From Candidatus Uhrbacteria bacterium (GTDB lineage: Bacteria > Patescibacteriota > Patescibacteriia > UBA9934 > GWF2-40-263), in the NCBI GenBank assembly GCA_023246355.1, contig JAHFIQ010000006.1:1-62788 (forward strand): DNA of 62,788 bases. Direction: 5' to 3'. A program made the position numbers and the translations under genes. The notes beneath the pieces were generated by a model. It worked only from the letters and a program-made list of their open reading frames with translations. It did not search any database and was not told the DNA's origin. The first letter of the stretch is position 1; each line of letters opens with the position of its first letter. This document shows, one piece after another, positions 48,593 to 50,849 of the stretch.

Positions 48593-50050
48593 ATGGATGA
48601 ACGTTTAACGATCGCAAGCGCGAAAGCAAATCTTGAAAAAGGATCTTTGAGTGCAGAGGCACTCGTAGGTTCATGTTTGGAAACGATTAAACAAGGCGAC
48701 AAAGACGTCCATGCATTTTTGGAATTGTCGCAGACAGCTATTGAGGAAGCTCGGGCGATTGACGCTCGTCGCAACGCCGGGGAACAGCTTGGTCCTCTTG
48801 CCGGGATTCCTGTGGCCATGAAAGACAACATGCTGGTGCAGGGCTGGGAGTCAACGGCCGGTGCGCTCATCTTGGAAGGTCACAAGGGTTCCTACAACGC
48901 GACGGTCACACAACGATTGAAGGATGCAGGTGCCATCTTAATCGGACGGACCAACATGGACGATGCGGCCATGGGTTCTTCTACCGAGACGTCTCATTGG
49001 GGACCAACGAAAAATCCTTGGGACATGACAAAGGTTCCGGGTGGTTCAAGTGGTGGTTCTGCTGCGGCGGTCGCTGCGGGATTTGTTCCTGTTTCCCTTG
49101 GCTCAGATACAGGTGGGTCGATTCGTCAGCCGGCATCTTTGTGTGGCGTCGTTGGACTCAAACCCACGTACGGCCGTGTATCTCGCTATGGACTGATCGC
49201 GCTTGCGTCCAGCTTGGATCAAATCGGTCCGTTTGCCCATACGGTGGAAGATGCGGCGCTCATGTTGCAGGTCATTGAAGGCAAAGATCCACGTGACGCC
49301 ACATCGGTCGATCTCACGCAGACCACGATTCCAGAGTTGATTGAGAAAGACGTGCGCGGATTGAAGCTTGGTTTGCCAAAGGAGTATTTTCTCGAGGGCA
49401 TGGATCCTGCTGTCAAAAAGACCGTGCTTGAGGCGGTCGATCGGTTAGTTGCTGCAGGGGCGCAGATCGAAGAGATTTCATTGCCGCACGCTGAGTATGC
49501 ACTCGCCGCGTATTACATCATCCAGCCAGCTGAGGCCAGTTCAAACCTCGGTCGATTTGACGGATTGCGCTACGGTTATCACTCGAGCGGCCAGAATTTG
49601 AAAGAGACATACGAACGAACGCGTGGGGAGGGATTTGGCAGGGAAGTGAAGCGACGCATCATGCTTGGTTCCTACACGCTTTCGGCGGGATACTACGATG
49701 CCTACTATCGCAAGGCCCTCAAAGTGCGGTCGCTTATCAAAAAAGATTTTGACGACGCGCTTAAAATCGTCGACGCGATCGTGACACCGACCTCTCCTTC
49801 CGTTGCCTGGGGCTTGGGAGAAAAATTCAACGATCCATTGACCATGTATCTGTCCGACATTTACACGATCACGGCTAACCTTGCGACGATTCCCGCGATG
49901 TCGATTCCCTGTGGATTTGTCAACGACCTTCCGGTTGGTTTACAGATCATGGGCAAAGCGTTTGATGAGTACACGTTGTTTCGAATCGGCGCAACGTATC
50001 AGTCTCTCACAGATTGGTATCTTCGATCTCCCGACACCTTTTCCACCTAG
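48593..50050 (+). CDS. gatA: Glu/Asp-tRNA amidotransferase subunit A
   Basis: Amidase signature [12 protein letters not shown]...[12 protein letters not shown]. The last six codons and the stop lie inside a TCCACCT-type element. Confidence 0.95.
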
Positions 50051-50072
50051 TCCACCTCGTCCACCTTTTCAC
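50035..50072 (+). repeat. TCCACCT-type element spanning the gatA stop and forming the lgt leader
   Basis: caccttttccacctagtccacctcgtccaccttttcac lies before the ATGATCC at 50073. It aligns closely (mismatches not counted) with the ftsE leader at 2482-2520. Confidence 0.75.
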
Positions 50073-50849
50073 ATGATCCCTTACTTCCAATTCACTTCTT
50101 TTCACCTTGGTCCCGTCCCGATTCAAGTGTGGGGATTGTTTGTGTCGCTGGGCATTTTGGCCGGTGCTTGGGCGGCGGCGCGGATGGCCAAGATGAGGGG
50201 ACAGGATCCAGAAATCATTTGGGACTTGTCGGCCACGGTGATTGTCGCAGCGTTTATCGGAGCGCGGCTCGTTCACATGGTCTACGAGCCGAGCACCTAC
50301 CTTCAGGATCCTGTCGAGTTTTTCCGTATCTGGCATGGCGGGTTCTCGATCATGGGAGGATTTCTCGGTGCGCTTCCAGCTGGGATTTGGTTTTTACGAA
50401 AACGTCAGGTAGATGTTTTTGCCTACGCGGACACCGCCATATTTGGTCTTCCACTCGGAATTTTCATTGGTCGCATTGGCTGTTTCCTCATCCACGATCA
50501 TCCAGGAACGCTGACGAATTTTCCCCTCGGCGTTCAGTACCCCGACGGCGTGCGGCATGATCTTGGTCTCTACGATTCAATTAACGGGTTGATATTGTTC
50601 CTCGTGTTCCTTCTGCTCGTGCATCGAAAGGCCAAGACCGGAACCTTCGTTGTCGTGTTTCTTTTTTGGTACGGCATCGTAAGGTTCCTCCTCGATTTTC
50701 TCCGCGCCACCAACGGCCCGATCGTGGACACGCGTTACTTCAACCTCACTCCCGCCCAGTATCTCGCTGTGGTCATGGTGGTGGGAGGGGTGTGGGTGTG
50801 GAGGAAAAAGTTTTTCCATCCTTCTGTCCGTGGACCCATGGGGGATTGA
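50073..50849 (+). CDS. lgt: Phosphatidylglycerol--prolipoprotein diacylglyceryl transferase
   Basis: HGGFSIMGGFLG and GRIGCFLIHDHPG motifs. The start is taken at MIPYFQF, because the longer track ORF overlaps gatA. Confidence 0.85.
   Translation: MIPYFQFTSFHLGPVPIQVWGLFVSLGILAGAWAAARMAKMRGQDPEIIWDLSATVIVAAFIGARLVHMVYEPSTYLQDPVEFFRIWHGGFSIMGGFLGALPAGIWFLRKRQVDVFAYADTAIFGLPLGIFIGRIGCFLIHDHPGTLTNFPLGVQYPDGVRHDLGLYDSINGLILFLVFLLLVHRKAKTGTFVVVFLFWYGIVRFLLDFLRATNGPIVDTRYFNLTPAQYLAVVMVVGGVWVWRKKFFHPSVRGPMGD

Follow-up and report, generated by a model that had tools for sequence, protein, structure and literature searches.

The leaders of two genes, ftsE and lgt, in a 62.8-kb stretch of Candidatus Uhrbacteria DNA (62,788 nt; hereafter the window, which was the part of the genome covered) each consisted entirely of a short element built around a tandem array of TCCACCT units. 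Both leaders were probably members of a lineage-specific dispersed repeat family resembling repetitive extragenic palindromic (REP) sequences, miniature transposable elements with inverted repeats (MITEs), and Rickettsia palindromic elements (RPEs), rather than a dedicated start signal. The family would consist of CCACCT cores split by 2–3 variable bases and would belong to a groundwater clade of Candidatus Uhrbacteria (Patescibacteria, or Candidate Phyla Radiation, CPR). It would occur in two forms, a solo C-rich array and a palindrome composed of (AGGTGGnn)n, a conserved centre TTCGRAATCCGRAA, and (CCACCTnn)n, which would fold into a long hairpin. The element had originally been predicted, from the letters of the window, to be a portable translation-initiation cassette. 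Its repeated and portable nature was borne out, but a dedicated role in initiation was not supported, given the six of eight window arrays that were not leaders and the hairpin and G-rich-orientation copies in relatives.

The ftsE and lgt leaders

Gene identities in the window were assigned by Pfam matches. The features at the two junctions were as follows.

2474-2514, plus strand: ftsE leader element; GCTCCCT, a degenerate unit, at 2476-2482, followed by three perfect copies of TCCACCT at 2485-2509 and by TTCCC
2515-3195, plus strand: ftsE (ABC ATPase), Pfam ABC_tran; start ATG 2515 supported by homologs
48593-50050: gatA, reading into the array, with the C-terminus ...RSPDTFST*
50031-50072, plus strand: lgt leader and gatA tail element; GACACCT, a partial unit, at 50033-50039, followed by three perfect copies of TCCACCT at 50042-50066 and by TTTTCAC
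50048-50050, plus strand: TAG stop of gatA, which consists of a T from unit 1 and the 2-nt spacer of that unit
50073-50849, plus strand: lgt (prolipoprotein diacylglyceryl transferase), Pfam LGT; start ATG 50073 confirmed

The TCCACCT units had a period of 9 bp in both leaders, and the triplet (TCCACCTNN)x3 ended 5 nt upstream of the ftsE ATG (2515) and 6 nt upstream of the lgt ATG (50073). Both leader sequences were as quoted in the original prediction, and both start codons agreed with the homologs. The element made up the entire leader in each case, as had been proposed. The spacer from the DPBB stop codon (TAA, 2471-2473) to the ftsE ATG was wholly occupied by the ftsE leader element, and the gatA-lgt element supplied the last codons of gatA (...PDTFST) together with the TAG at 50048-50050 within the array. 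The C-terminus of GatA in relatives read ...RTPS* or ...QSPT*, compared with ...RSPDTFST* in the window. The distance from the stop codon to the next start was 22 nt for gatA and 41 nt for the DPBB gene.

The two leaders matched in 36 of 41 columns as first aligned and in 40 of 49 columns of a wider alignment. The reported near-identity held for the 7-nt cores and for the T-rich stretch on each side, and apart from these it was limited to ATGATCC. Only one of the four variable spacer positions (CA/AG and CT/CG) matched. The shared ATGATCC is, judging from homologous starts, native to ftsE and lgt and lies outside the element. All Lgt homologs examined began with MIPYF or MIPYI. The FtsE product (MIR...) was 226 aa long, as in nearly all of the 120 best homologs, and the ftsE start in four relatives was ATGATC/T-CG, which also encodes MIR. 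The conserved MIP... and MIR... starts did not support the proposal that the element provided the start codon, which belonged to the genes, as did the bases after it.

The source of the DNA was groundwater metagenomes, and its placement in Candidatus Uhrbacteria agreed with the source names of Lgt and FtsE homologs and with conserved synteny. The sequence of the ftsE junction was identical in five independent assemblies; the array at this junction was therefore not an assembly artefact.

Arrays across the window

Eight arrays were found in the window, all of the solo C-rich form. Two were the leaders described above, five lay in frame within Pfam-confirmed open reading frames (ORFs), and one lay in an unannotated ORF of 105 aa. 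The six arrays outside the leaders were as follows.

1910-1955, plus strand: array in the DPBB/RlpA-like gene; four units and a degenerate one, encoding STFSTSSTF, with a PP frame after one 8-bp step
5998-6049, plus strand: TCCACCT, TCTGCCT, TTTCTCT, TCCACCT, TCCACCT; Ser-Thr-x frame, near the end of the unannotated 105-aa ORF (5774-6091)
10914-10947, minus strand: uvrB array, antisense to the gene; Gly-Gly-x frame
34625-34648, minus strand: short array in dus (a gene of the minus strand), sense; TCCACCT, TCCAACT, and a degenerate unit, encoding STSSNSP
39655-39690, plus strand: lepA (EF4) array, sense; reads TSATLSTSSPLP (TSATLSTSS)
46581-46616, plus strand: ligA array, directly before the KxDG adenylation motif; Ser-Thr-x frame

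The heptamer TCCACCT was present 25 times in the window, compared with 6.7 ± 2.6 expected from shuffled sequences. Outside the arrays it was present seven times (6.7 expected), and the whole excess was located in the arrays. When as many as three mismatches were allowed, the pattern of three units was matched 11 times, with overlaps, at six loci and never in 100 shuffles. These counts agreed with the earlier view that the element was not chance low complexity.

Within ORFs the arrays were read as Ser-Thr-x in the DPBB gene, lepA, ligA, and dus, and as Gly-Gly-x in uvrB, where the array was antisense. TCC accounted for 18% of the serine codons and ACC for 30% of the threonine codons. Codon preference did not explain the uniform use of TCC-ACC, which therefore pointed to a constraint or origin at the nucleic-acid level.

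The array of the DPBB gene was an insertion relative to the orthologs of L131 and L133 (loci from relatives are designated by L numbers), and L130 contained a different S/T/P-rich insertion in the same loop. The array at 5998-6049 was located upstream of a DsbD_2/cupredoxin gene, in a region that was a window-specific insertion compared with L130. The uvrB loop contained AGGTGG cores in L133 and had diverged, with a similar length, in L130 and L131; in L131 it read GYEGYKGFEGFK. In L126, the orthologous lepA loop (~110-150) was occupied by another tandem repeat of 9 bp, ACTCAACG x3. Both this loop and that of uvrB seem to be generally prone to 9-bp repeats. A separate feature was located just upstream of uvrB (10284-10349), where perfectly complementary 22-nt arms, AGTTGGGAGCCAGGCTCCCAAC and GTTGGGAGCCTGGCTCCCAACT, were each palindromic in themselves.

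The same junctions in relatives

Loci from relatives were fetched around ftsE, which biased the sampling of gene functions to envelope and division loci. The flanking genes of the compared lineages were ~74-80% identical at the nucleotide level, and the branching order was poorly resolved. At the gatA-lgt junction, L126 (JACRJW01), L127, L129, and L254 contained a 4-bp ATGA overlap of stop and start codons and no element. The DPBB-ftsE junction of L130 (CAYHRJ01) and L133 likewise contained the ATGA overlap and no element. Given the plain ATGA overlaps of the relatives, the window leaders were insertions of ~35-40 bp into former stop/start overlaps. Comparison of the regions upstream of ftsE and lgt in relatives, which the original prediction had named as its own check, went against a dedicated cassette: since several close relatives used the overlaps without the element, it was not required for initiation. 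It was found upstream of the orthologous starts in one sister lineage only.

In that sister lineage (L131, L132, and L257) the element was present at both junctions. The gatA-lgt element of L257 had the same boundaries as that of the window, CGATCTCC(C/T)GAC at the left and CCACCTTTTC(A/T)C-ATG at the right. It contained four CCACCT cores with an 8-bp period, and a TAA was located at the spacer equivalent to the one that forms TAG in the window. Every CCACCT core was intact between the window and L257, while the spacers and the period (9 and 8 bp, respectively) differed. The DPBB-ftsE junction of L131 and L132 contained a 92-bp element of the hairpin type, in which AAGGTGG...GGATAGGTG was followed by ATTCCGAATTTCGAAATCCGA, (CCACCTnn)5, and TCCCC-ATG. 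This element ended with CCACCTTCCCC-ATG, and only its right boundary matched that of the window. Three cores of the window aligned with the last three of L131 and shared the right boundary CCACCTTYCCC-ATG, and the left sides differed. The base preceding the core also differed between the junction copies of the window and those of the sister lineage. The genes flanking the shared junction copies were only ~74-78% identical.

Hairpin forms and other copies

The palindromic form was observed in L130, L131, L186, and L038. The ftsE-ftsX spacer of L130, L131, and L132 contained a palindrome of (AGGTGGnn)4-5, GTCGGAATCCGAAGTTCGGAATCCGGAA, and (CCACCTnn)5-8, followed by the ftsX ATG. The palindrome of L131 had a predicted folding energy of -81.2 kcal/mol (z = -10), and the L131 hairpins matched Rfam only below threshold, with miRNA-like hits of the kind that long hairpins produce in general. 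No palindrome separated ftsE from ftsX in the window, where the two genes were adjacent. The longest ORF of ftsX in the window started at TTG 3192 and overlapped ftsE; some gene calls of the source assemblies gave a product of 304 aa, which corresponds to ATG 3201 (MFVSSYRV), six bases past the ftsE stop codon.

A recognisably similar centre (TTCGRAATCCGRAA-like) was found in five elements from three genomes. Elements with this type of centre were located upstream of an mreB-like gene, the product of which begins with MFQRKIGIDLGTT, in L042 and L186, with two and four units, respectively, in the proximal arm. An element with a similar centre was also present in L038. A metagenome scan with the 16-nt hairpin centre gave 120 loci, all of which were chance matches except L186.

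Solo arrays preceded a Mur ligase gene in L131 and, in L057, a gene with a product that begins with MKTPLVLSNG..., and L257 contained a solo array in the opposite, G-rich orientation upstream of a prepilin peptidase gene. Coding copies were present in a glycosyltransferase-like ORF of L006 (PPx frame; identity read from the peptide), in the C-terminal tail of a NusA-like protein of L050 (VEEVDKVEEV), in an ORF of L038 (KVDQVEEVDKVDK), and in L043 as (STS)n. A census of 210 kb of clade DNA gave 29 arrays, with periods of 8 bp in 23 cases and 9 bp in 44 cases. The spacers of arrays across the clade carried almost no information and were G-poor.

A scan for the three-unit pattern in one genome per species gave at least 120 matches, so that the taxonomic spread obtained is a lower bound. 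Among the matches listed, three assemblies had more than one matched contig, namely JACRJW01 (4), CAYHRJ01 (2), and a Thermoflexales metagenome-assembled genome (MAG) (2). JACRJW01 and CAYHRJ01 were Uhrbacteria-like, in line with an enrichment in this lineage, and the arrays of the Thermoflexales MAG differed. The loci of the latter (L010 and L062, JBDSIP01) contained, near contig ends, extended tandem arrays with a 9-bp period in which units resembling TTATCCACC, and thereby the consensus DnaA box, alternated with others of the types TGACCACACC and TTACGAACC; a relation to the Uhrbacteria family seems absent. CAYHRJ01 (GCA_964359095.1; L130, L006, and L042) is titled 'uncultured Gammaproteobacteria bacterium', a label that appears wrong. 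Its FtsE was 93% identical to that of the window, and it shared the DPBB-ftsE-ftsX synteny and the same repeat family.

In the source metagenomes, contig depth was ~2-5x higher over the arrays; this extra depth indicated other copies in these metagenomes. Loose contig ends showed other array contexts, several of which were followed by an ATG within ~20 nt, and one was preceded by an AGGT-rich arm.

Translation signals and structure of the leaders

Neither leader contained a Shine-Dalgarno (SD) sequence, as had been stated originally, and neither had a match to GGAG, GAGG, or AGGA. The same was true of most genes in the window, so that the SD-less leaders of ftsE and lgt were the rule and not the exception. 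A recognisable SD sequence was present in only a handful of the ~55 window genes (e.g. 21860, 37683, 51206, and 52856), and many neighbouring genes overlapped by 4 bp. This pattern of sequence suggests a heavy reliance of the window on translational coupling and SD-independent initiation. The CCACCU of the leader strand would resemble the 3' tail of 16S rRNA and would not be complementary to it at -5 to -12. The window itself contained no rRNA gene, including 16S, and a search of it with Rfam gave only tRNAs at the gathering score. Neither sigma-70-like promoters nor terminators were predicted in the arrays when the two leaders were scanned.

The predicted folding energy from -35 to +25 was 0.0 kcal/mol for both ftsE and lgt, which were the least structured (ranks 1 and 2) of 34 genes. 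Leaders predicted to be unstructured in this way would be compatible with SD-independent initiation.

Proposed origin of the leaders

In the proposed scheme, copies of the repeat would persist only where they are tolerated, which would be in protein loops and at the junctions of co-directional genes. The tolerated loop frames would be Ser-Thr-x, Pro-Pro-x, Gly-Gly-x, and Val-Glu/Asp-x, which would encode flexible, mostly polar linkers, and a 9-bp period would preserve the reading frame. The ancestral DPBB-ftsE and gatA-lgt junctions would each have been a 4-bp ATGA overlap of stop and start codons that was opened by the element. The gatA gene would now read into the element and stop at the element-borne TAG, and the stop codon of the DPBB gene would have stayed at its old position. 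At both junctions the native ATG of the downstream gene would have been retained. After the loss of coupling, translation could proceed by re-initiation past the nearby stop codon or by structure-free SD-independent initiation. The inserted strand has next to no G, which would prevent folding of the new leaders and so allow initiation to continue in the SD-poor window. The effect of the element on translation would be permissive rather than dedicated, and the copies would have spread by a REP/MITE-like process together with slippage of units.

The number of units varied between orthologs. The ligA array had four units in the window and two in L126 and had decayed in L254, and L127, L129, and L257 contained an unrelated loop that is apparently ancestral. 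The ligA array was shared by the window, L126, and L254, but the gatA-lgt element by the window and L257; these conflicting patterns imply that a repeated gain, a loss, or an exchange took place at least once. The spacers of the window arrays differed from unit to unit, so that the arrays have not simply been made uniform by recent slippage. No length variants were observed at the ftsE junction in five assemblies, and contigs of four sequencing runs were free of indels at either leader, as judged on assembler contigs, which drop rare variants. The flanks of the DPBB-ftsE element were GTAA (window) or GTGA (L131) at the left and ATGA at the right, which could be a decayed 4-bp duplication; no duplication was visible at the gatA-lgt junction. 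Copies may have spread as hairpin forms by transposition, through conversion of one copy by another, or by slippage inside the arrays.

Several observations weighed against the proposed dispersed repeat. None of ten hypothetical or poorly annotated ORFs of the window matched a transposase family, no clear target-site duplication was found, and no hairpin form was revealed when the window was searched for inverted repeats and the central motif. The solo junction copies were mostly in the C-rich sense orientation (4/5), and the junction copies were mostly upstream of envelope and division genes, to which the sampling was biased. The combination of intact cores with drifting spacers and period at the shared junctions suggests that the core is under selection or that the copies evolve in concert. 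Such selection could be mediated by a partner, either a protein or an RNA, and continuing conversion from other copies would give the same pattern. Some sequence-specific constraint on the CCACCT cores is thus possible. The perfect conservation of the cores against the drift of spacers and periods was the reason for retaining a combined explanation, in which the arrays would be functional cis-elements carried on a mobile palindromic repeat. They would serve as operator-like boxes (for example for MraZ) or as single-stranded RNA landing sites for a ribosome-associated factor, and by entering former ATGA overlaps they would have rewired envelope and division genes (ftsE, ftsX, lgt, Mur ligase, and mreB-like genes) in a clade of ultra-small CPR bacteria. 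This explanation was considered unlikely.

Alternative explanations

The arrays might instead be functional leaders, in which (UCCACCU)n acts as a standby site or pyrimidine-rich enhancer for SD-independent initiation and has spread by selection for that role. The window arrays adjoined the genuine ftsE and lgt starts, relatives had arrays before ftsX, Mur ligase, mreB-like, and MKTPLVLSNG... genes, and the metagenome contig ends with an ATG close to the array were in line with this role. The complete lack of predicted structure in a window that rarely uses SD sequences, and the retention of cores beside variable spacers at the junctions common to the sister lineage, would also fit. However, six of the eight window arrays were not leaders, five of them being within confirmed ORFs, and several close relatives had these genes at ATGA overlaps without any element. 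The copy before the prepilin peptidase gene in L257 was in the G-rich orientation, and the ftsE-ftsX hairpins (-81 kcal/mol) would hinder access of the ribosome. Unstructured RNA alone would not explain the conservation of exact cores, and the ATGATCC that had strengthened the likeness of the two leaders was native to the genes. A selected leader function was accordingly judged unlikely as the cause of the family.

Repeated operator boxes typically combine a conserved core with spacers that vary, as was observed here, and the arrays might be double-stranded DNA sites for a protein that binds GGTGG direct repeats, chiefly MraZ and otherwise a nucleoid protein or DnaA, which would tie envelope and division genes to a regulator. 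GTGG boxes in ~10-bp phase were found at 18324-18388, upstream of mraZ (18460-18891, with the ATG at 18460), and one of them, AGGTGGA, was the complement of an array unit. The boxes read AAGTGGAG, CAGTGTC, GAGTGGTT, AGGTGGAG, and AAGTGGGG and formed an MraZ-operator-like region before mraZ-rsmH. Junction copies were located before ftsE, ftsX, Mur ligase, mreB-like, and lgt genes, an association with gene function that was confounded by the choice of loci around ftsE. The period of the arrays was 8 or 9 bp and varied at a single junction, in contrast to the 10-bp phase of the mraZ boxes in the window; known MraZ operators are also in 10-bp phase. Many arrays were located deep in unrelated genes (lepA, ligA, uvrB, dus, and the NusA-like gene), and no sigma-70-like promoter was predicted at either leader. 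For the DnaA variant, the units departed from TTATCCACA at position 9 as well as at positions 2-3, which are variable. Binding by MraZ or a similar protein was therefore regarded as improbable. A DnaA-box cluster was rejected as the main explanation on account of the mismatches to TTATCCACA, the 8-9-bp period, and the GC skew, which climbed steadily over most of the window and did not show the reversal expected at an origin. One perfect copy of the DnaA box, TTATCCACA, was present at 18260-18268, just past the stop codon of the gene at 17674-18258.

It was also considered that no family exists, each array having arisen by local slippage as a microsatellite-like Ser/Thr or Gly linker, with a coincidental likeness of the two leaders. 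The three-unit pattern was found at 120 or more places in unrelated genomes and at more than 120 in viral contigs, mostly as single copies, which indicated that 9-bp tandem repeats arise widely. The viral matches, nearly all of which were single per contig, were uninformative on the CCACCT family. L012, a Gracilibacteria MAG and one of the few matches inspected, was a simple 9-bp tandem array. The numbers of units differed between orthologs, and the lepA and uvrB loops held other 9-bp repeats in relatives. Independent slippage nevertheless would not account for eight loci in 62.8 kb that shared a 6-7-nt core with different spacers, for intergenic and antisense copies, or for cores joined to a conserved central module in relatives. 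The junction sequences of relatives contained no seed for the core, and codon usage did not favour TCC-ACC. This explanation was held to be very improbable.

Further candidates were considered. A Chi-like polar sequence was rejected because the G-rich strand of the arrays was opposite to the G-rich leading strand. A DNA uptake sequence (DUS/USS) would be speculative and was contradicted by the single copies of TCCACCT in the window, which were not in excess (7, with 6.7 expected). A Rho-utilisation site would likewise be speculative.

Comparison with known repeat families

A full-text literature search found no description of dispersed repeats in genomes of CPR/Patescibacteria or Uhrbacteria. 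By analogy, the closest counterparts of the proposed dispersed family would be REP sequences and bacterial interspersed mosaic elements (BIMEs), the Correia and ERIC MITEs, and RPEs. REP/BIME elements are short, highly repeated, lineage-specific, often palindromic, and located between co-transcribed genes, with a copy number and arrangement that vary among close relatives; the hairpin forms of L130, L131, and L186 resembled them in this. The REP/BIME elements of gamma-proteobacteria are mobilised by RAYT (IS200/IS605-like) transposases. No RAYT gene was found in the DNA examined, which did not extend to searches of whole genomes. The CCACCT elements differed in that each arm repeated a core of 6-7 nt in tandem, with spacers that varied, and in that the window copies were solo and non-palindromic, without an inverted partner. 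They were also not restricted to extragenic positions, with five of the eight arrays in confirmed ORFs and a sixth in the unannotated ORF.

RPEs are in-frame repeats in conserved, unrelated housekeeping genes of a reduced genome, in which the host proteins are not destroyed (PMC10969869). A comparable in-frame insertion that was absent from orthologs was observed in the DPBB gene (compared with L131 and L133) and in ligA (compared with L127, L129, and L257), and the hosts of this type were ligA, lepA, uvrB, dus, and the DPBB gene. RPEs are ~100-150 bp long and encode a conserved peptide (PMC10969869), whereas the CCACCT arrays were 20-50 bp long with an 8-9-bp period and were read in at least four frames (STx, PPx, GGx, and VEx). 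The phylum is also different.

Correia and ERIC MITEs are small non-autonomous elements with inverted arms that are located directly upstream of genes, are co-transcribed, and alter the expression of neighbours through promoters, RNase III sites, or mRNA stability (PMC10969869). The CCACCT hairpin forms ended with AGGTGG...CCACCT, and terminal inverted repeats with a defined target-site duplication were not established. In contrast to Correia and ERIC elements, the CCACCT arrays had no predicted promoter-like hexamers and were built of tandem units.

The ftsE and lgt leaders resembled SD-independent leaders in being G-poor, predicted to be unstructured, and directly upstream of an ATG in an SD-poor window. 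S1-dependent or standby pyrimidine-rich leaders are not known to take the form of a repeated cassette that is portable and keeps a fixed core. The known sites of MraZ are direct repeats of AAAGTG(T/G) (PMC8475190). The arrays shared with them a direct repetition of GTGG-type boxes, the complement of the unit, AGGTGG(A), being the same box as that upstream of mraZ. They differed in the 8-9-bp spacing, compared with the 10-bp promoter phasing, and in their many intragenic copies.

If the leaders belong to a dispersed family as proposed, small and tightly packed CPR genomes would tolerate an active repeat that lengthens loops of essential proteins (LigA, EF4, UvrB, and the NusA-like protein) and breaks translationally coupled gene pairs, placing a G-free leader where the ATGA overlap had been. 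The junctions would thereby provide a natural experiment on gene initiation in an SD-poor lineage. The repeat could also serve as a practical marker for typing strains and lineages and for spotting mislabelled MAGs. Should the cores bind a factor, they would illustrate how a mobile repeat can disseminate regulatory sites.

Region downstream of lgt

The interval from lgt to the TrmB-like gene was ~1.1 kb (50850-51938) in the window, compared with ~75-80 bp in L126, L127, and L129. It contained a minus-strand ORF of 166 aa (51206-51706) with no Pfam match, and short inverted repeats were present on both sides of 50953-51119. An ORF of 166 aa was likewise located on the minus strand of the corresponding interval in L255 and L256. 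Further downstream, a 28-nt near-perfect hairpin (52782-52842) was located between the TrmB-like and DUF218 genes, and its stem ended in T/A runs in a terminator-like manner.

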